This document shows positions 29,436 to 44,746 of a stretch of 64,000 nucleotides of DNA, one piece after another. The notes below the pieces were generated by a model. That model saw only the letters and a program-made list of their open reading frames with translations. It did not search any database and was not told the origin of the DNA. The stretch comes from an uncultured delta proteobacterium (GTDB lineage: Bacteria > Myxococcota > Myxococcia > Myxococcales > Anaeromyxobacteraceae), in contig CAWHDZ010000028.1 of NCBI GenBank assembly GCA_963828255.1, forward strand, positions 8,489-72,488. The letters are read 5' to 3'. Every line of letters starts with the position of its first letter. Position 1 is the first letter of the stretch. The position numbers and the translations under genes are program-made.

Positions 29436-29690
29436 GGCGCCATCCTACGTTCGGGCGGAAGGAGGTGGCAAGGATGCTCCCCGGCGCCCCGGGGCAAGCC
29501 GCGGGAGGGAGTCAGCGACCCTTTACCTTCGATCGAACCGGCCGGGCCCTTCGCGCCCACCCGTCCCCACTTACACCTACAGTGAAGTTTCTCGCGCGTG
29601 GCCGGGCTCGGGACCTTGCCGGGCCGCGCGGACCGTGAGAAAGCTGCAATGCAACCCCGGTCGCGTCTCGACGCGTGGAGGACGGCACGA

Positions 29691-30746
29691 ATGGCGTGGG
29701 CGAAGATCCTCGTGTCGGTGGCATGCGCCGCGGCGCTGGCGCTGCCTGGCCCGGCGGCGGGCGCGCCGTCCGCGGAGCCGAAGGCGCTCAAGAAGCACAC
29801 GTTCAAGGTGAACCCGGGCCCCCTGCCCGCCAAGGAGAAGGCGGCCTGGAGCCACGCACCCTTCGAGGCGGGCGACTGCACCATCTGCCACGCCAGCGCG
29901 GATCCGAAGAACCCCGGCCCGGTCACGACGAGCGGCAACGCGCTCTGCTACTCCTGCCACGACGAGTTCCAGGAGATCATGAAGCGCCCGTACCAGCACC
30001 CGCCCGCCGTGGAGAGCTGCCTCAACTGCCACAACGCGCACAACTCCCGGGAGCGAGGGCTCCTCCATACCGAGCTGGCCACGGGCTGCAAGGACTGCCA
30101 CCGGCAGATCAAGGAGATCGCCGAGAACTCGAGGGTGAAGCACGGCGCCCTCGACCAGGGCGCGAAGTGCGCCAACTGCCACAACCCCCACGGAACCTCG
30201 GTGGAGAAGCTGCTCATCCAGCTCCCCTACGACCAGTGCGTGAACTGCCACGGGGTGGACGACATGAAGGACCACGAGGGGGTCGTCCTCACGAACTACA
30301 AGAAGTGGCTGGAGGAGAACAAGGTCAAGCACGCGCCGGTGCAGGCCAAGGACTGCTCCGCCTGCCACCGGACGCACGGCGGCGAGAACTTCCGCCTGCT
30401 GATCGCCGAGTACCCGGCCACCTTCTACTCGGCGTACGACCGCAAGAACTACGCGCTGTGCTTCAGCTGCCACAACGAGAAGGTGGTGAGCGAGCCGGAG
30501 ACGCGCACGCTCACCAACTTCCGCGACGGCTCCCGCAACCTGCATTTCCTCCACGTGAACAAGGCCGACCGCGGCCGCGCCTGCCGGGCCTGCCACGAGG
30601 TGCACGCCTCCCGGCAGCCCCTCCACGTGCGCGACGGAGTCCCCTACGGCCCCACCGGCTGGGTCCTCAAGATCAACTACACGAAGACCCCCACCGGCGG
30701 GCAGTGCGCCAGGACCTGCCACGACACCAAGAGCTACGAGAGGTAG
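29691..30746 (+). CDS. Periplasmic multiheme cytochrome c (9 CxxCH + 1 CxxxCH)
   Basis: GGAGGA RBS, signal peptide; CTICH, CYSCH, CLNCH, CKDCH, CANCH, CVNCH, CSACH, CFSCH, CRACH and terminal CARTCH. Confidence 0.92.
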   Translation: MAWAKILVSVACAAALALPGPAAGAPSAEPKALKKHTFKVNPGPLPAKEKAAWSHAPFEAGDCTICHASADPKNPGPVTTSGNALCYSCHDEFQEIMKRPYQHPPAVESCLNCHNAHNSRERGLLHTELATGCKDCHRQIKEIAENSRVKHGALDQGAKCANCHNPHGTSVEKLLIQLPYDQCVNCHGVDDMKDHEGVVLTNYKKWLEENKVKHAPVQAKDCSACHRTHGGENFRLLIAEYPATFYSAYDRKNYALCFSCHNEKVVSEPETRTLTNFRDGSRNLHFLHVNKADRGRACRACHEVHASRQPLHVRDGVPYGPTGWVLKINYTKTPTGGQCARTCHDTKSYER

Positions 30747-30752
30747 CGGCGG

Positions 30753-31600
30753 ATGGGCGGCCAGGCGAGGCGACGGCTGATCCTGGGGGTCCTCGGGGGG
30801 CGCTCTCCGGCGCGCTCTGGCCGCTCACCGGCTCGGCCTTCGCCAACGTCGAGGTGGGGCAGCGGGTCGAGAACGTGGAGCTTGCGACCCTCGACGGACG
30901 CCGCGAGATGCTCCTGTCCGGAAAGGCGCTCGCCAACGTCCTCGTCTTCTTCCGGCCCGGCCATGATCGGTCGCTCGACACGCTGAAGGCGATGGCCGTC
31001 TGCGAGAAGGAGTTCACCGCGAAGCCGGTGCGCTGGGTGGCCATCGTCTCCGGCAGCCACGCGCGCGACGAGCTGAGGGCGTTCGTGGCCGAGTCGGGCA
31101 TCCTCATGCCGGTCCTGCTCGACGAGGGGGACGCCCTCTACGGCAAGCTGGGCGTGCGGTTGCACCCGGTGATCGGCATCGCCGACGAGACGGGGGCGCT
31201 GCGCGACTACGTGCCGTACCACCGGATCAACTACTGCGACATGATCCGGGTGCGGATCCGCTACGCGCTGCACGAGGTGGACCTGGCGGCGGTCGAGCGG
31301 GTGGACCAGCCGCCGAAGGCCCTCTTCCCCAGCGCGGTGCCGGGCGCCGTGGCGGGGCGGCGCGTGAAGCTCGGGGAGATGTTCCTGGAATCCAGGCAGT
31401 GGACCAAGGCCGCGGAGCAGGCGCGCATCGCGATGGAGAAGGAGCCCGGGCTGGCCGCGGCCCACGTCCTCCTGGGCCAGGCGCTTTCCGGGCAGGGGAA
31501 GTGCCGGCAGGCCCTGCCCGCCTTCGACAGGGCGTTGAAGCTCGACCCGGGGAGCGCGTCTGCCGCCGAGGGCAGGCGCGGCTGCGAGGGGAAGAAATGA
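30753..31600 (+). CDS. Exported thioredoxin-fold (redoxin-like) + TPR protein with an apparent frameshift at G6 (30795-30800)
   Basis: ATG 30753 gives MGGQARRRLILGVLGG; the rest of the signal peptide (ALSGALWPLTGSAFA) and the protein body continue in another frame; C-terminal TPRs (AAAHVLLGQALSGQGKCRQALPAFDRALKLDP). Confidence 0.75.
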
Positions 31601-32337
31601 CGGCGAATGCGGGAATGCTGTTCGCGCTGGCGGCCGCGCTGCTCGGGGCGCCGGCCGCGGCCACGGGGCACGTCGAGGCCGGGACCGTGGTGGAGGGCGC
31701 CGACCTCCCGACCCTTTCGGGCGGCCGGGATGCGCTGCTCGTCCCGGGGAAGGTCAACGTGCTGGTCTTCTTCCGCCCCGACCAGGACCGCTCGGCGGAC
31801 ACCCTGCAAAGGCTCGCCCAGTGCGAGCCCCTCCTCGCGGGCAAGCCGGTCCACACGGTGGGCGTGGTGCCGGCGAGTGCGCCGCGCGAAAGGGTGCAGG
31901 CGATGGTGGCCGGGTCGCGGGTGAAGTCGCCGATCCTGCTCGACGAGGGGGACCGGGTCTACGGCCGCCTGGAGCTGCGGCAGCACCCGGTCATCGTCAT
32001 CGTGGCCGCGGACGGGAAGGTCCACGCGGTCGAGCCCTACCAGCGGCTGCGCTACTGCGAGATCGTCCGGGCGCGGGTGGGGCTCCTGCTCGGCGAGATC
32101 GATCAGGCGGCGGTCGATCGCATCGTGAACCCGGAGCGGGCCGCCTTTCCCAACGAGGTGGGCGGCGGGAGCGCGGCGCGCTACGTGAAGATGGGCGACC
32201 AGGAGCGGGCCAAGGGCAACTGCAAGCTCGCCATCAAGGCCTACGACGACGCCCTCCGGCGCGATCCGCTGAACGCGAAGGCGGTGGAGGGGCGGATGAG
32301 GTGCGGCGGCGCCGCGCCCCAGCCGCCGAAGCGGTAG
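31597..32337 (+). CDS. Exported thioredoxin-fold + TPR protein, paralog of the upstream gene
   Basis: ATGA overlap; signal peptide; shares LVFFRP..DRS.DTL, LLDEGD..YG.L, HPVI and YC motifs with the upstream gene. Confidence 0.8.
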   Translation: MTANAGMLFALAAALLGAPAAATGHVEAGTVVEGADLPTLSGGRDALLVPGKVNVLVFFRPDQDRSADTLQRLAQCEPLLAGKPVHTVGVVPASAPRERVQAMVAGSRVKSPILLDEGDRVYGRLELRQHPVIVIVAADGKVHAVEPYQRLRYCEIVRARVGLLLGEIDQAAVDRIVNPERAAFPNEVGGGSAARYVKMGDQERAKGNCKLAIKAYDDALRRDPLNAKAVEGRMRCGGAAPQPPKR

Positions 32338-35503: not shown

Positions 35504-36247
35504 GTGTCCTGGGTCAAGCTCGTCCTCTCCTACGACGGCACCCGCTACGTGGGCTGGCAGCTCCAGGCCAACGGGCCGTCGATCCAGGCCGAGGTGGAGC
35601 GGGCGCTCACCGTCCTCCACAAGGAGCCGGTGCGCGTGACCGCGGCGGGGCGCACCGACTCCGGCGTCCACGCCCTCGGGCAGGTGGCGAGCTTCGCGGT
35701 GGAGCACCCCATCCCGGTGACGGCCTACGTGAAGGGGATGAACGCCCACCTGCCGGAGGACATCGCGGTTCGCGAGGCCGAGGTCCGCGGGTCGCCCTTC
35801 GACGCGCGGCGCGACGCGCGGGGCAAGCGCTACCGCTACCGGATCGAGAACCTCCCCACGCGCCATCCGCTGGGCAGGCTGCAGGCCTGGCAGGTCTTCC
35901 GCCCCCTCGACGTCGCCGCCATGCGGGCCGCCGCCGCACCGCTCCTGGGCCGGCACGACTTCGGCGCCTTCCGGGCCGCCGACTGCGACGCCGCGCACGC
36001 GGTGCGCGAGCTGCGACGGCTCGAGGTCCAGGAAGGGCCGGAGGGGCGCATCGAGGTGGTGGCCGAGGCCACCGCCTTCCTGAAGCACATGGTGCGCAAT
36101 CTCGTGGGGACGCTCGTCGAGGTCGGCCTGGGAGCCCGGAGCGCCGGATCGATGGAGGACGTGCTGCGGAGCCGCGACCGGAAGCTCTCGGGCCGGACCG
36201 CGCCGCCGCAGGGGCTGGTGCTCGACCGGGTCTTCTACGACGAGTGA
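35504..36247 (+). CDS. truA: tRNA pseudouridine(38-40) synthase
   Basis: YDGTRYVGWQLQ, AGRTDSGVHALGQ, AFLKHMVRNLVG, TAPPQGL. Confidence 0.96.
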   Translation: MSWVKLVLSYDGTRYVGWQLQANGPSIQAEVERALTVLHKEPVRVTAAGRTDSGVHALGQVASFAVEHPIPVTAYVKGMNAHLPEDIAVREAEVRGSPFDARRDARGKRYRYRIENLPTRHPLGRLQAWQVFRPLDVAAMRAAAAPLLGRHDFGAFRAADCDAAHAVRELRRLEVQEGPEGRIEVVAEATAFLKHMVRNLVGTLVEVGLGARSAGSMEDVLRSRDRKLSGRTAPPQGLVLDRVFYDE

Positions 36248-36263: not shown

Positions 36264-37040
36264 TCACCTGGCCGGCGCGCCCATTCCCAGCGCCTGGGAG
36301 ATCTCCCGGGCCTTGGCCTGGAGGATGCGGGCGTTGCGCGGCCCCATCCGCAGGATCTGCTTCTCCACGTCGCCGAGCCCCTCCAGTGACGGATCGGCGA
36401 AGGCCCAGGTGGCGCCCGTTCCCTCCACCACCGCGACCTCCCCGTCGCGGACCGGGCTCACCTCGATGCGGTGGAGCGCCCGCGCCGCCGCCTTGTCGAT
36501 CGAGCCGTCCGGGTAGCCGAGGGCGCGGTAGGCGGCCTCCAGCGCCGGGCGCAGCGCGGCGTAGGCGATGACGAACGCGTCCACGTTCACCGAGGCCACC
36601 GCGTCTCCCACGGTGTCGAAGCGGGAGTACGACTGCGGGTCGATGGAGGCCTTCCCGTCCCGGCGCACCACCGCGAAGGCGCCCTTGGGTGCGAGGGTCT
36701 CGAGCTGCTTGCGCGGCACCATGTCGTTGGCCAGGTTCTCGACCGCCACGGCCCAGCGGCGCGCCACGTCGGGCGCGACGAGGAGCCCGCGGAGCAAGGG
36801 GTTCGCCGACACGGCCTCGAGGAGGGAGAGCTGCCTGGCCGGGTCCACCGCCGGGCCGGTCGCCCCGGCAGGAGCCTCGACCGCCGGAGGCGCCGCCGCC
36901 CCGGGGGCGGGTGGAGGCGGGGTCGCGCCGAGGAACCACCAGAGCCCGCCAGCGGCGGCCACGACCACCCCGAGCCCGGCGAGCACCAGCGGAACCGCGC
37001 TGGGCGGGCGAATCGAGGTCTTCGGTCTCTCCGATTCCAT
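36264..37040 (-). CDS. DUF3014-like membrane-anchored protein
   Basis: N-terminal TM helix; SYSRFD, AYRALGYP, FADPSLEGL...KQILRMGPRN; GGGAG RBS. Confidence 0.8.
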   Translation of the reverse strand: MESERPKTSIRPPSAVPLVLAGLGVVVAAAGGLWWFLGATPPPPAPGAAAPPAVEAPAGATGPAVDPARQLSLLEAVSANPLLRGLLVAPDVARRWAVAVENLANDMVPRKQLETLAPKGAFAVVRRDGKASIDPQSYSRFDTVGDAVASVNVDAFVIAYAALRPALEAAYRALGYPDGSIDKAAARALHRIEVSPVRDGEVAVVEGTGATWAFADPSLEGLGDVEKQILRMGPRNARILQAKAREISQALGMGAPAR

Positions 37041-37109
37041 GTGTGCTCCCTCCCCTTCGGTGAACCCTCCGGCGCTGGCGCGAATTCTCCCTCGAATCGC
37101 CTCCGACGG

Positions 37110-37144
37110 AAACGACGAGGCCGGCGGCTCTCGCCACCGGCCCC
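37110..37144 (-). terminator. Intrinsic terminator-like hairpin
   Basis: Minus strand GGGGCCGGUGGC-GAGA-GCCGCCGGCCUC then GUCGUUU; 12-bp stem with two G-U pairs that form only on the minus strand; GNRA loop. Confidence 0.7.
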
Positions 37145-37265
37145 GAAGGTCTTGGGTCTATGAGAGGGCTCGCGTCTACCTGGACTCCTTTGGGATCGTT
37201 TTCCGGATCCAGGAGCAAGCCCCGTTCCGAAACCACGCCTCCTGGAACGCCAGCAATGTCAGCTG
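37110..37265 (-). ncRNA. Candidate structured sRNA or cis-regulatory leader
   Basis: Consecutive hairpins at 37223-37249, 37166-37222 and 37117-37144; promoter-like TTGCAC-N16-CATTTT upstream; lower GC than the flanks. Confidence 0.5.
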
Positions 37266-37328
37266 GTTGAAAAATGCGACTGCTCGAAACCCGTGCAAGG
37301 GGAGTGGAGAATCGGGGCACCACGCCCC

Positions 37329-39965
<2,637 letters not shown>

Positions 39966-40030
39966 ACCCCGGAAGCGTAAGGCCTCGGGCATGCATGGCA
40001 AGCGCCGTCCCGGGCCATTAGGGGTCGAGG

Positions 40031-41122
40031 GTGAACGACCCATCCAGGACGAGTGCAGCGCTGCCGGCGGTCCTCTCCGTGGGGCGTGCGCTCCCCGGGA
40101 ACTACGCCGACCAGGAGACCCTGACCGCGGCGCTCCGCGCCCACTGGGCCGCGCAGCACTTCAACGCCGACCGGCTCGAGGAGCTGCACCGGGCGGTCAA
40201 GGTGAAGGGTCGCCACCTCGCGCTGCCGCTCGCCGGGTACCCGGCGCTCGACACCTTCAAGAAGTCGAACGACGCCTGGATCCGGGTGGCCGAGGAGCTC
40301 GGCGCCGAGGCGGTCATGCGGGCCCTCGACGACGCCGGGCTCCGGCCGGCCGACGTGGACCAGCTGGTCTTCGTGACCGTCACCGGCCTGGCCACCCCCT
40401 CCATCGACGCGAAGCTGGTGAACCGGCTCGGGCTGCGGCGCGACGTGAAGCGGGTCCCCATCTTCGGGCTGGGCTGCGTCGCCGGCGCCGCCGGCCTGGC
40501 GCGCCTCTCCGATCTCATGTCCAGCACTCCGGGAGGGGTCGGGATCCTCCTCTCGGTGGAGCTCTGCTCGCTCACCCTGCAGCGCGACGACCTCTCGGTG
40601 GCCAACGCGGTGGCCTCGGGGATCTTCGGGGACGGCGCCGCGGCGGTGGTCCTGGCCGGATGTTCACGAAAAGTGAAAGCGACCCCGCGCCCGCGCGTGG
40701 TGGCCACCCGGGCCGCCTTCTACCCCGACACCGAGTGGGTCATGGGCTGGGACTTCCGCGACACCGGCTTCCAGGTGGTGCTCTCCGCCGAGGTCCCCCG
40801 CGTCACCCGCGAGAACATCGCCGGCGACGTGGACGGGTTCCTGGCGTCGCAGGGGCTCGGGCGCGGGGACGTGCGCCACTGGATTGCCCACACCGGGGGG
40901 CCCAAGGTGCTCGAGGCCTTCCAGTCCGCCCTGGCCCTTCCCGACGGGGCGCTGCGGCGCTCCTGGAGGTCGCTCGAGGAGGTGGGCAACCTCTCATCGG
41001 CCTCGGTGCTCTTCGTGCTCGGCGACCTCCTCGATTCGGGCGAGCCCAGGCCCGGGGATCTGGGGCTGGTCGTCGCCATGGGGCCCGGATTCTGCGCGGA
41101 GATGGTACTCCTCCGGTGGTGA
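40031..41122 (+). CDS. Type III polyketide synthase
   Basis: Cys-His-Asn triad: [24 protein letters not shown]; also FGDGAAA and MGPGF. Confidence 0.93.
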
Positions 41123-41135
41123 GAGGGATCGGCGC

Positions 41136-41687
41136 GTGACCGCACTCTGGGCCTATCTGGCGCTTCTCGGTCTCGTGGCGGCCGAGCGGGGGGCCGAGCT
41201 CTCGGTCTCGAACCGCAACGCCCGCGCCCTGCTCTCCCGCGGTGGGAAGGAGAGCGGCCGCGGGGTCTATCTGGTGATGGTGGCCTTCCACGCCCTCTTC
41301 CTCCCGGTGCTGGCGCTCGGCGCCATCGCCTACCGGGAGCCGCCCTCCACCTGGGCCCTCCTCGCCGTGGCCGGGGCCTTCGCCGCCCAGGGGCTGCGCT
41401 GGTGGGCGGTCCGCACGCTGGGCGACCGCTGGAGCACCCGGGTCATCGTGCTCCCGAAGGCCAGGCCGGTCACCGGCGGCCCCTACCGCTTCCTGCGCCA
41501 TCCCAACTACCTGGCGGTGATCGTGGAGATGGCCTGCCTTCCGCTGGCCTGGGGCATGTGGCGCCTGGCCATCCTGTTCACCCTGGGGAACGCCGCGATC
41601 CTGTACTTCCGCATCCGCGAGGAGGAGCGGGCGCTCGGCCCGGAATGGAGCCGCGCCTTCGAGGGGAAGGGGAGGTTCGTGCCGTGA
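41136..41687 (+). CDS. Isoprenylcysteine carboxyl methyltransferase-family protein (SrsB-like O-methyltransferase)
   Basis: [47 protein letters not shown]. Confidence 0.9.
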
Positions 41688-41956
41688 CCGCGCCGCCCGG
41701 CCCGACCCCACGCGAGCGGGAGGTGGCCGCCGAGATCCGGCGCATCGTCCGGGAGCAGCTGCACGCGCGGACCGAGTTCGGCGACGACGAGGAGCTGGCC
41801 TCCCGACTCGACTCGCTGGCGCTGCTCTCGCTCGTGGTCGCGGTCGAGGACCGTTTCCGCATCCTGCTCACCGACGAGGACGCCGCCAGGGCCCGCTCGC
41901 TCTCCGAACTGGCCCGGGTCGTCGCCGCGCGCTCCACGGTGCAGGTGGCGCCGTGA
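41684..41956 (+). CDS. Acyl carrier protein
   Basis: LDSL phosphopantetheine motif, VAVEDRFRI; GTGA overlaps on both sides. Confidence 0.88.
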   Translation: MTAPPGPTPREREVAAEIRRIVREQLHARTEFGDDEELASRLDSLALLSLVVAVEDRFRILLTDEDAARARSLSELARVVAARSTVQVAP

Positions 41957-43659
41957 ACCGGCTGCGGGGCCCTCCGGCGCCCGTCCCGCGCCACCAGGGG
42001 GTGGCCGCCATGCTCTCGGCGGCGGCCCGCCACCCCTCCGGCGTCACCTTCGTGGGGCTGCGCGAGGAGGAGACCCGCCTCTCCTGGGCCGAGGTGGACG
42101 CACGGGCCCGCCGCGCCGCCGGGGCGCTCGTGGCCCGCGGCGTCCGCGCCGGCGACCGGGTGGCCATCGTGCTCCGCACCGAGCCCGCCTTCCTCGACGC
42201 CTTCTTCGGCGCGCTGCACGCCGGGGCGGTGCCGGTCCCGCTCTACCCGCCGGTGCGGCTCGGGCGCATGGACGAGTACGTGCTGGCCACCGCGCGCATG
42301 CTGCGGGTGTCGGGGACGCGCGCGCTGGTCACCACGGGGGGCTTGGCCCGGGTCATCGGCCGGGCCGTGGCCGAGGCCGGGCCGGGCCTGGATCTCGGGG
42401 TGGTGGACGCGTCCGGTCTCGGGGAGGGGCGGGAGACCTCCGCGCCCCGCGCCGGCGGCGACCTGGCCCTCGTCCAGTTCTCCTCCGGATCGACGGTGGA
42501 TCCCAGGCCGGTGGCCCTTTCCCACGCCGCCCTGGTCGCCCAGGTCGATTCACTCGTGGTCATCGTGCAGCCGACGCCGCACGACGTGCTCGTCTCCTGG
42601 CTGCCGCTGTACCACGACATGGGGCTCATCGGCTGCCTGCTCGGCGCGGTCTCCTACCCGGGGCCGCTCGTGCTCATCCCGCCCGAGCACTTCCTGGCCC
42701 GCCCGGCCCTCTGGCCGCGCGCGGTGGCCCGCCACCGCGGGACCATCTCGGCGGCGCCCCACTTCGCCTACGCCTTCGCCGCCGACCGGGTGCGCGACGC
42801 CGACATGGCCGGGCTCTCGCTCGCCTCCTGGCGCATCGCCCTCGACGGCGCCGAGCCGGTCACCACCGGCGCGCTGCGGCGCTTCGCCGAACGCTTCGCC
42901 CCCTCCGGCCTCGATCCCGGGGTCCTCATGCCGGTCTACGGGCTCTCCGAGGCGGCGCTGGCCGTGACCTTCTCCCCGCCCGGGCGGCCGCCACGCGTCG
43001 AGGATGGCGCGGTCTCGGTGGGCCTGCCCATACCCGGGGTGGAGGTGGAGGTGCGCGGCGAGGACGGGGGCGCGCTGCCGGAGCGGCGCCCCGGCCGCAT
43101 CCACGTGCGCGGCCCCTCGCTCATGCAGGGCTACCTGGGCGACGCCGCCGCCACCGCCCTGGCGCTGCGCGACGGGTGGCTCGACACCGGCGACCTGGGC
43201 TTCCACGCCGGCGGCGAGCTCTTCGTGCGCGGCCGGGCCAAGGACGTCGTCATCGTGCGGGGTGCGAACCACGCCCCGGAGGAGTTCGAGGCCTGCCTGG
43301 GGGCCGTCGAGGGGCTGCGCCCCGGCTGCGCGGTGGCGCTGGGCTTCGTGCCCGAGGGAGGCGACGGCGAGGAGCTCCTGGTGCTGGCCGAGCGGACCCG
43401 CGCCTTCCGGGGCGACCCGGCCGCGCTCGTCGAGGCGGTGCGCGAGGCGGTCTCGTCGCGGTCCGGCGTGCGCCCCCACACCGTGCGGATCCTCGAGCCC
43501 GGGACCCTGCCCCGCACCTCCAGCGGCAAGATGCGCCGCGGCGAGGCGCTGCGCCGCTTCCAGGCGGGGAAGCTCCTCCCTCCACGCAAGGTGAATGTCC
43601 TCTCGCTGGTGCGGGAGGTGCTGGCCGGCCGGCTCGCCCGGGCCAGGGCCCGGAGGTGA
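41953..43659 (+). CDS. Fatty acyl-AMP ligase
   Basis: QFSSGST, SWLPLYHDMGLIG, VYGLSEAALAVT, DTGDLGF, LPRTSSGK. Confidence 0.92.
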   Translation: MNRLRGPPAPVPRHQGVAAMLSAAARHPSGVTFVGLREEETRLSWAEVDARARRAAGALVARGVRAGDRVAIVLRTEPAFLDAFFGALHAGAVPVPLYPPVRLGRMDEYVLATARMLRVSGTRALVTTGGLARVIGRAVAEAGPGLDLGVVDASGLGEGRETSAPRAGGDLALVQFSSGSTVDPRPVALSHAALVAQVDSLVVIVQPTPHDVLVSWLPLYHDMGLIGCLLGAVSYPGPLVLIPPEHFLARPALWPRAVARHRGTISAAPHFAYAFAADRVRDADMAGLSLASWRIALDGAEPVTTGALRRFAERFAPSGLDPGVLMPVYGLSEAALAVTFSPPGRPPRVEDGAVSVGLPIPGVEVEVRGEDGGALPERRPGRIHVRGPSLMQGYLGDAAATALALRDGWLDTGDLGFHAGGELFVRGRAKDVVIVRGANHAPEEFEACLGAVEGLRPGCAVALGFVPEGGDGEELLVLAERTRAFRGDPAALVEAVREAVSSRSGVRPHTVRILEPGTLPRTSSGKMRRGEALRRFQAGKLLPPRKVNVLSLVREVLAGRLARARARR

Positions 43660-43660
43660 C

Positions 43661-44746
43661 GTGAGGGACGTGATCGTCGTCGGCGGCGGCCCGGCTGGGC
43701 TCTCGGCGGCCGCCGCGGTGGCGGCGCGGGGGCTCGACGTGGTCGTCCTGGAGCGGCGGGAGCTGCCCGCCGACAAGGCCTGCGGCGAGGGGCTCCTCCC
43801 CGGAGGCGTCCGGGCGCTCGAGGCGCTGGGCGCGCTGCGCCACCTCGACCCGGGAGGCTGGTCCCCGCTGCGGGCCATCCGCTGGATCCAGGAGGATGGG
43901 CGCCTTGCCGAGGCGCGCCTGCCCTCGCCGGGCGGGATGGGGATCCGGCGGCTGGCGCTCTCCGCGGCGCTCTCGGCCCGGGCGCGCGAGGCCGGGGCCG
44001 AGGTTCGCGACGGGGCCGGGGTGGAGTCGCACCGGCGCGACGGCGACGGCGTGACGGTCCGTCTCGCGTCGGGCGAGGAGCTGCGGGCCCGCTTCCTCGT
44101 GGCCGCCGACGGGCTCTCCTCGGCGGTCCGGGAGCGGGAGGGGCTCGACCGGCCGGCGGCCACGCCCCGCCGCTTCGGCCTGCGGCGACACTTCGCGATC
44201 GATCCCTGGACCGACGCGGTCGAGGTCCACTTCTCGCCCGGAGTCGAGGCCTACGTCACCCCGGCGGGAGCGCGGCGGGTGGGGCTGGCCTTCCTCTTCG
44301 AGGAGGGGATCGCGTCCGGCTTCGACACGCTCCTGGCGCGCTTCCCGGCGCTCGCCTCCCGCCTCGCCGGTGCGCCCTTCGACTCGGCGCTGGCCGGGGT
44401 GGGCCCCCTGGGGAGGAACGCGTCGGCCCGCATCGCCGACCGGCTCGTCCTCGCCGGTGACGCCGGCGGGTACGTGGACGCCATCACCGGCGAGGGGGTG
44501 TCGCTCGCGCTGCTGGAGGCCGTGCTCCTGGGGGCGCTCCTCCCGGACGCCCTCTCCCGGGGAGCCAACCGGGAGGCGCTCCTGCCCTGGGATCGGGCGG
44601 TCCGGGCCCGCCACCGGCGCCACGCCGCGGTGACGCGACTCGTCCTGGGGATGGCGCGCCGTCCGGCCGTTCGACGCAGCGCGGTGGCGCTGCTCGGACG
44701 GGCCCCGCGCCTCTTCGACGTCCTGGTGGCCGGGGCGGTCGGTTGA
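43661..44746 (+). CDS. FAD-dependent monooxygenase/oxidoreductase (SrsC-like)
   Basis: VVGGGPAG, DKACGEGL, AADG, EAYVTP, GDAGGYVDAITGEG. Confidence 0.9.
   Translation: MRDVIVVGGGPAGLSAAAAVAARGLDVVVLERRELPADKACGEGLLPGGVRALEALGALRHLDPGGWSPLRAIRWIQEDGRLAEARLPSPGGMGIRRLALSAALSARAREAGAEVRDGAGVESHRRDGDGVTVRLASGEELRARFLVAADGLSSAVREREGLDRPAATPRRFGLRRHFAIDPWTDAVEVHFSPGVEAYVTPAGARRVGLAFLFEEGIASGFDTLLARFPALASRLAGAPFDSALAGVGPLGRNASARIADRLVLAGDAGGYVDAITGEGVSLALLEAVLLGALLPDALSRGANREALLPWDRAVRARHRRHAAVTRLVLGMARRPAVRRSAVALLGRAPRLFDVLVAGAVG

Follow-up and report, generated by a model that had tools for sequence, protein, structure and literature searches.

Small RNAs that descend from the mRNA of a protein gene have a described precedent. 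OxyS evolved from the 3' end of a peroxidase mRNA, an event which its description, in the sections available to us, treats as one inferred replacement at the family level with low sequence conservation (PMC8825220). The same sections name two routes from mRNA to sRNA, in which the regulatory function appears before or after the gene decays, and choose neither (PMC8825220). For the mode of action, the portion of the source used here describes how RoxS protects yflS from RNase J1 (PMC5419742). In this work we have examined a window of 64,000 nucleotides, the whole stretch of DNA analysed, from an uncultured member of the Anaeromyxobacteraceae, together with the corresponding loci of its relatives. 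The 288-bp gap between clpB and a DUF3014 gene (37041-37328) has a GC content of 0.635, compared with 0.749 in the DUF3014 gene and 0.686 at the end of clpB; an earlier sequence-only reading of the window had noticed that its GC is lower than that of the flanks. Comparison with relatives places a conserved element in this gap, although its anatomy differs from the one drawn in that reading. We propose that a predicted sRNA, born by deletion of a small protein gene, pairs with and shields the 5' end of the mRNA of a glycosyltransferase, GT2; taken as a whole, this account is tentative and falls a little short of an even chance. The features of the locus are the following.

35504..36247, plus strand: truA (PF01416), convergent, the synteny anchor for reading the locus in other genera.
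36264..37040, minus strand: the DUF3014 gene (PF11219), downstream neighbour in this genus only.
37084..37112, minus strand: sigma-70-like -35/-10 boxes predicted for the DUF3014 gene, overlapping the terminator tail.
37108..37145, minus strand: a 13-bp terminator-like stem with a weak U tail, from folding and alignment.
37109..37203, minus strand: the predicted sRNA of about 95 nt, both ends inferred (fold z -3.0).
37149..37168, minus strand: the predicted seed (37158-37149) and a second, C-rich pairing stretch (37168-37162), from complementarity to the GT2 mRNA 5' end.
37176..37190, minus strand: AAGGAG...TAG, the remnant of the deleted ORF's last codons, from sequence comparison with relatives.
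37214..37229, minus strand: a predicted sigma-54 -24/-12 promoter, present in 16 of 16 loci.
37260..37272, minus strand: a weakly conserved spacer motif, from a partial consensus over 29 cassettes.
37304..37319, minus strand: the right half-site for predicted binding of a sigma-54 activator (bEBP), from sequence comparison.
37324..37338, minus strand: a possible, speculative substitute for the left half-site, overlapping the clpB stop, from sequence comparison.
37329..40043, minus strand: clpB, from its ORF and Pfam Clp_N/AAA/ClpB_D2, upstream neighbour outside the cassette.

Two other parts of the window deserve mention. Positions 40031-44746 hold a type III polyketide synthase (Pfam) followed, by eye, by a methyltransferase, an acyl carrier, an acyl-AMP ligase and a flavin monooxygenase, and positions 29598-32337 hold a multiheme cytochrome c with many CxxCH motifs and then two redoxin/TPR-like proteins (by eye). 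Several genes occur twice on different contigs of the assembly (C17/C18, C31/C32, C7/C33 and C23/C40), which fits its reported 6.6% contamination or strain mixing.

The conserved parts, which together we call the cassette, follow each other in a fixed order: an inverted repeat, the sigma-54 -24/-12 box, a variable middle, AAGGAG, a C/A-rich stretch ending in CAAGAC, and the terminator. Of 61 genomes searched at the DNA level, 27 had a match at E 0.01, among them the 13 remaining genomes of the genus, and the strong matches spanned only about 37193-37050, the closest genome (G010) excepted. The pattern of half-site plus box, built from 16 such loci, occurs once each in 14 of 14 genomes of this genus and 3 of 3 of a sister genus, and in none of the other 75 of 92 family genomes; a reversed control gave no match. 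All 17 genomes with this pattern also carry the CAAGAC-terminator tail. When the tail alone was searched for, the 42 metagenome matches comprised 17 with a box upstream (16 of them also with the half-site), 3 that were too short and 22 unrelated terminators; 28 genome matches included 15 with a box, and these 15 are labelled Anaeromyxobacteraceae, Anaeromyxobacter sp. or deltaproteobacteria. Half-site and box are 87-90 nt apart in each of the 29 distinct cassettes compared (two near-duplicates removed), while the spacer between them diverges. A covariance model scored 64-105 bits in its 17 training genomes, the next best score in the family being 48, and found nothing in 107 sampled genomes from other families of the order; 13 of its weak matches in other genera were inspected and proved to be ordinary terminators of other genes. 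No cassette was seen at 17 of 18 truA loci inspected in other genera, the exception being the outgroup G023, with an ORF and the promoter motifs. Judged by these comparisons, the cassette is a real, clade-restricted element of two Anaeromyxobacteraceae genera. In many relatives another gene separates it from clpB. A conserved gene of about 270-300 codons, which we take to be DUF72-like, faces clpB from this position in many relatives (L003, L004, L008, L011-L013, L015, L016) and is missing in this genome and several others.

How much of the earlier drawing is retained? The GGGGC/GCCCC hairpin after the clpB stop was found at 37328-37314, and the letters TTGCAC-N16-CATTTT do stand at 37298-37271, but as a promoter the latter are not conserved and a sigma-70 scan found nothing. 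Since the sigma-54 box lies at 37229-37214, the RNA would begin only downstream of hairpin 1 and of the 5' arm of hairpin 2. As drawn, hairpin 1 is absent from the minimum free energy structure, is not conserved, and has its 3' arm inside the sigma-54 box; a 17-nt match to it in three relatives falls inside the gene adjoining clpB and was set aside as chance. Hairpin 2 is present in the minimum free energy structure, but its arms are not conserved and its 5' arm is the -12 element of the sigma-54 box. Its arms pair at -28.5 and -26.9 kcal/mol only in this genome and G010, compared with -7.9 to -19.2 kcal/mol in the other 29 of 31 cassettes. The stem of the GAGA-capped terminator was confirmed (13 bp, 37145-37116) and is kept, nearly invariant, in 16 of 16 aligned loci; its U tail is weak and a terminator scan found nothing. 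As for the several GGA motifs that had been pointed out, AGGAGG among them is not conserved and a single GGA motif is.

With a start at 37203, 12 nt after the -12 element as in the usual sigma-54 geometry, the predicted transcript would be about 95 nt long. The idea of a standalone sRNA is supported in this shorter form, and not as an RNA of about 155 nt that includes hairpins 1 and 2. At the level of motifs it has a conserved promoter and terminator of its own, as a trans-acting sRNA should. The minus strand of 37100-37270 folds with a z of -3.3 against shuffles, compared with -1.9 for the plus strand. The search for covariation in relatives, suggested with the earlier drawing, revealed a conserved element whose consensus fold is the terminator only, with a two-sided change in 1 of 13 pairs. 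Stems of this style also end unrelated genes in the family, and CAAGAC also precedes unrelated terminators in other taxa; the same terminator style accompanies an unannotated family of membrane proteins of about 150 aa in the family's largest genus (L098, L104, L107-L109). In accordance with the view that no familiar RNA class is present, Rfam gave no match anywhere in the window, the best value close to the locus being E 0.38, and none in nine related loci, and ARAGORN found neither tRNA nor tmRNA. 6S RNA (RF00013), suggested by eye, was rejected since the 6S RNA of this genome is on another contig (57.5 bits), and Pxr (RF01812) gave three sub-threshold matches in the genome, none of them at this locus. 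We found no description of an Anaeromyxobacter sRNA in the literature, where our coverage was mostly open-access and where supplementary motif or sRNA catalogues could still list the element.

One contig from an RNA library, 92% identical, spans clpB into the element and matches 37162-37455 without gaps; it may derive from DNA or read-through. It alters the A of the supposed -10 box (37275), AGGAGG (37239) and one pair of hairpin 2 (37211), and none of the 17 listed differences, out of 19, is inside the sigma-54 box or the activator half-site. The assembled contigs of the RNA-library runs X2-X4 leave the element uncovered, from which no conclusion follows.

Where does such an RNA come from? 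As the cassettes are read here, the predicted sRNA of about 95 nt is almost certainly the leftover of a deleted small protein gene, with the promoter joined to the 3' tail of the old mRNA. In the middle of the cassette, four of the 17 genomes have a full ORF, two have mini-ORFs of 17 and 30 aa, one has a remnant, and ten, among them the genome studied here, have none. New cassettes from metagenomes add nine full ORFs (two near-identical to that of G011), one mini-ORF of 39 aa and five ORF-less copies. The full ORF encodes 121-134 aa with a signal-like N-terminus and a body rich in Ala, Pro and Lys. The mini-ORFs of 17 and 30 aa are fusions of its start and end, and the remnant still holds a few body codons. 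In this genus AAGGAG...TAG corresponds to the last codons of the ORF (K-E-A/V-K-stop in intact copies), and these letters also close both the complete ORFs of relatives and their mini-ORFs of 17, 30 and 39 aa; in the sister-genus type, AAGGAG occupies the position that the ribosome-binding site has in G023. In this outgroup the locus has the ORF and shares the promoter motifs, but the tail differs. The lost protein has no Pfam or NCBIfam family over cut-off, and no relative of it was found on viral contigs. Asr-like periplasmic proteins likewise consist of an N-terminal signal-like peptide followed by a poorly folded chain rich in Ala, Pro and Lys; the Asr cluster came only at rank 20 (0.82 in the atlas), which is a lead and not membership.

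The deletion seems to have been repeated. With groups taken from the ORF states and tests run once the first tree was known, AU tests rejected a single clade of reduced copies both on clpB (p 2e-4 for all copies, 0.022 within the genus) and on four genes (p 5e-89 and 1e-4). Unordered parsimony counts three changes. If the ORF was never regained, for which the fragments argue, loss at least four times in two genera would be needed. Each type of junction occurs in several assemblies and the RNA-library contig is gapless, so a collapse of the assembly is unlikely. Further copies of the small-protein gene exist outside the cassette: in G004 one lies between clpB and the cassette (L189), back to back with the latter and with its own sigma-54 box and half-site, and another, apparently frameshifted, lies at the kinase locus of the same genome.

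It is highly likely that the box is indeed a sigma-54 promoter. The genome encodes sigma-54 and 24 proteins with the activator motif. Relative to G010, this genome lacks the usual left half-site as well as part of the spacer; across this region an independent contig aligns gap-free. The weak spacer motif at 37260..37272 is, we assume, possibly an IHF site. When the pattern of half-site and box was loosened, exactly two promoters of the genome were matched: the one in the cassette and one in front of a paralogous ORF, behind which a sensor kinase and an NtrC-family regulator are encoded. Chance alone would give 0.125 per distance bin, and the paralogue was already known when the pattern was loosened. 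On the basis of this one second promoter, the bEBP for the cassette is most likely the NtrC-family regulator behind the paralogue (C40:238014-240905). The arrangement of paralogue and kinase recurs in both genera and beyond, and we infer that the paralogue made the second copy of the protein dispensable. At kinase loci that have no paralogue the pattern found a sigma-54 box in 0 of 8, and the same pattern missed the box in five ORF-bearing loci. The module as such, found at C40:238014-241415 (L201, L209, L210) and recurring across the family, consists of a sigma-54 promoter, a small ORF rich in Ala, Pro and Lys with a signal peptide, a sensor kinase and an NtrC-family regulator; its small ORF is frameshifted in this assembly, possibly through an assembly error in low-complexity sequence. 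At the kinase locus of G025 (L232) the small ORF is gone while the terminator and an extended -10 motif are kept, another deletion in the gene family. Pairing of the sRNA with the 3' UTR of the paralogue was considered and rejected, since the motif has the look of an extended -10 box belonging to the kinase gene and is still there when the paralogue is lacking.

What could the RNA pair with? Scanning 3849 predicted start regions for simple duplexes produced no usable target. A target screen listed 75 sites in or near predicted genes that are complementary to the core; the four best were followed and one was conserved. In two of the four the site is not conserved, and in the leader of a B12 radical-SAM gene it is lost in most of the 17 genomes. 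In this genus that leader shows conservation of a hairpin and, before it, of a sigma-54-like box whose -24 element is unusual (L322-L336, L345). The conserved site belongs to the leader of a GT2 glycosyltransferase (PF13641) that has a distant likeness to cellulose synthases; its gene is single-copy and is present in 82 of 92 family genomes. Transcription usually starts 7-8 nt past a -10 box, and in 17 of 17 cassette genomes the seed-complementary site begins 7-8 nt after a conserved -10 box, at the inferred GT2 start. All 17 cassette genomes have the site, and none of the 33 leaders examined among the 65 other genomes with the gene does; this split amounts to one clade, on which the motif was also defined. 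Among 104 sigma-70-like promoters of the genome, just one carries the site at the start. In all 50 family leaders examined, GT2 has a sigma-70 promoter that is strongly conserved (L272-L301). The leader is about 90-110 nt long with no obvious ribosome-binding site, and a G-rich run at its 5' end is able to pair with C-rich sequence close to the start codon.

Pairing between the predicted sRNA and the GT2 mRNA is likely to be real in this clade. Two columns changed on both sides. One column is C-G in thirteen genomes, U.G in one (G011) and U-A in the three of the sister genus; the other is C-G in sixteen and U-A in G002 only, its sister G003 being unchanged on both sides. These two-sided changes are two events only, and the coincidence in G002 has a chance probability of about a few percent (10 of 146 leader columns differ). 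The U.G pair of G011 was considered as an evolutionary intermediate and discarded, since G011 is not basal; in G011 the helix is extended to 15 bp. Both G002 and G011 have an intact ORF. Cognate duplexes have a mean of -26.0 kcal/mol, compared with -12.5 for outgroup leaders. The two weakest are those of this genome and G010 (-17.4 and -12.3), the others ranging from -24.2 to -34.3; three g7 leaders pair at about -21.5 kcal/mol, and 3 of 4 g10 leaders have a 7-nt partial match further in. In a scan of 9-nt registers against the GT2 leader, one of 6900 reached 90% pairing (96.7%, with two two-sided columns), and in five other leader sets, just one of which had been picked by the same screen, none did. 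The predicted accessibility of the seed is 0.24-0.55 in this genus, and co-folding formed the 5'-end duplex in 17 of 17. In the consensus of the GT2 leader positions 2-8 have no internal partner; in some individual folds the 5' end and the start region are paired.

According to the mechanism that we propose, the kinase-activated bEBP would switch on the sigma-54 promoter of the sRNA, and a 9-bp seed helix with a second helix of 4-8 bp would form on GT2 mRNA positions of about +1 to +20. The duplex may then block RNase J or the conversion of the 5' end, so that GT2 expression would rise when the kinase is active. RNase J is present in the genome (TIGR00649 over cut-off). Activation by opening of the start region is not supported, since the changes in its accessibility are not consistent over the 15 valid leaders, two rows with a mis-set start codon having been left out: accessibility rises by at least 0.05 in 6 of 15, stays within 0.04 in seven and falls by more than 0.1 in two. 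We chose 5'-end shielding because of this lack of consistent opening, the position of the site far from the start codon at the predicted 5' end, the presence of RNase J, and the closeness of the RoxS-yflS case. Given pairing, a protective sign is the rather better supposition. Could the same sRNA and the same pairing lower GT2 instead, through recruitment of a nuclease, a refolded leader or premature termination? All the evidence for pairing is blind to sign, in two of 15 valid leaders blocking of +1 to +21 cut the predicted start-region accessibility by more than 0.1, and CpxQ, the best-studied 3'-derived sRNA of an envelope-stress mRNA, represses its targets in the part of its description that we draw on (PMC9438474). 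We consider repression unlikely nonetheless: the site is about 80 nt from the start codon and would not directly cover the ribosome site, the helices are short and interrupted, and in the available account of RoxS-yflS and FasX-ska pairing at the extreme 5' end stabilises (PMC5419742).

It is improbable, to a degree beyond repression, that the cassette is a relic, in which promoter and terminator are left over, the hairpin is kept as a terminator between clpB and truA, and the complementarity is due to chance or has decayed in this sub-lineage. Such a reading would be at ease with the family style of the stem, the CAAGAC before unrelated terminators in other taxa, the paralogue that still supplies the protein, and the assembled RNA-library contigs, in which no transcript was seen. 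It is also suggested by this genome itself, where the lost left half-site and the weak duplex indicate that the copy may be decaying. It does not explain why all ORF-less copies, in either genus, keep the box and the right half-site at one fixed distance across a diverging spacer, nor the two-sided pairing changes in register, and other genera have clpB and truA without any cassette.

The sequence-only reading had offered a terminator-based leader of the DUF3014 gene as its other choice, and read-through from the sigma-54 promoter into such an attenuator is now very improbable. DUF3014 does lie downstream on the same strand in 12 of 14 genomes of the genus (the other two loci end early or gave no match), and the weak U tail makes some read-through plausible. 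On the other hand, six intact cassettes (in three sister-genus genomes and three further metagenome loci) face a convergent truA with no DUF3014, and the question whether homologs stay upstream of that gene is answered by its absence downstream in the sister genus and G023. Moreover, DUF3014 has sigma-70-like boxes of its own (in 17 of 23 cassettes of this genus type and 0 of 6 of the sister-genus type), and the consensus fold contains the terminator only, with no alternative helix. Just as improbable is a reading at the level of DNA, in which a single transcription factor binds the cassette at the seed and the GT2 start at the complement of the seed; the position at GT2 would suit a repressor and a shared DNA site also looks reverse-complementary, but the change found at both sites in G002 only would require a species-specific shift in protein specificity, and the U.G column of G011, like the interruption in the second helix, agrees with pairing between RNAs. 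An RNA that sequesters a protein, as CsrB and RsmY do, is what the earlier suggestion of CsrA binding would imply; it is hardly credible, for although an AGGAG-type motif is kept in nearly all cassettes, CsrA was not found in this genome or in 5 of 5 relatives (a control search found it in 3 of 14 known genomes), no conserved hairpin surrounds the motif, and the one conserved GGA is explained by the old Lys-Glu codons or the old ribosome-binding site.

If the preferred reading, a deletion-born sRNA that shields GT2, is true, the locus would offer a replicated natural experiment in sRNA birth. It would also provide a candidate sRNA-target pair with natural compensatory alleles, in a family for which we found no described sRNA in the literature, and a possible case of 5'-end shielding outside the Firmicutes. 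The full-ORF, mini-ORF and ORF-less states, which exist side by side, bear on the question of order named in the available sections of the OxyS paper (PMC8825220). The strongest evidence for pairing, the compensatory change of G002 and the 15-bp helix of G011, comes from species with an intact ORF and points to function first. The fullest version of our proposal, in which the 3' tail gained its GT2 target before the ORF was lost, the paralogue-backed ORF was deleted at least four times in parallel, and the shielding from RNase J takes place without Hfq in a Gram-negative bacterium, is more tentative again than the account as a whole.

The comparisons below rest on those parts of the cited papers that were available to us. 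RoxS-yflS of B. subtilis and FasX-ska of S. pyogenes pair at the 5' end of the target (PMC5419742), as the predicted sRNA may do at the predicted GT2 start. Those two are experimentally shown in Firmicutes (PMC5419742), whereas ours is predicted only, in a Gram-negative relative of the myxobacteria; also in contrast to them, no consistent opening of the start region is predicted for GT2. The intact-ORF relatives resemble CpxQ from the cpxP mRNA (PMC9438474) and UhpU from the uhpT mRNA (PMC12704781), in that a conserved 3' tail serves as a second output of one promoter at the level of RNA; in these relatives the undivided mRNA, in place of a 3' fragment cut by a nuclease, could also be the regulator. 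CpxQ differs in needing Hfq and RNase E, in repressing its targets and in keeping the parental ORF (PMC9438474), while in this genome Hfq was not found and the ORF is dispensable. Like Pxr of Myxococcus, the predicted RNA is a myxobacterial sRNA of about 100 nt with a predicted sigma-54 promoter, but Pxr adjoins the bEBP gene nla19 on its downstream side and has three stem-loops, whereas the cassette is at clpB-truA and has one conserved stem (PMC5568312). The likeness to OxyS is one of origin: in both, an sRNA, predicted in our case, is made from the last codons of a lost gene, its 3' UTR and terminator, at the same locus and from the promoter of the parental regulator (PMC8825220). At this locus relatives have an ORF with a 3' end that agrees with the sRNA, and the parental regulatory sites are retained, save for the left half-site in this genome. 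As there is no Rfam match, no sequence relation to OxyS was found, and regulator and target differ as well. This type of origin is already known from OxyS; what is new here is a predicted mRNA-born sRNA with repeated losses, intermediates and a covarying predicted target. Unlike the OxyS case as far as its source describes it (PMC8825220), there would be at least four losses in two genera, with living intermediates and with the pairing of seed and target already present in species whose ORF is intact.
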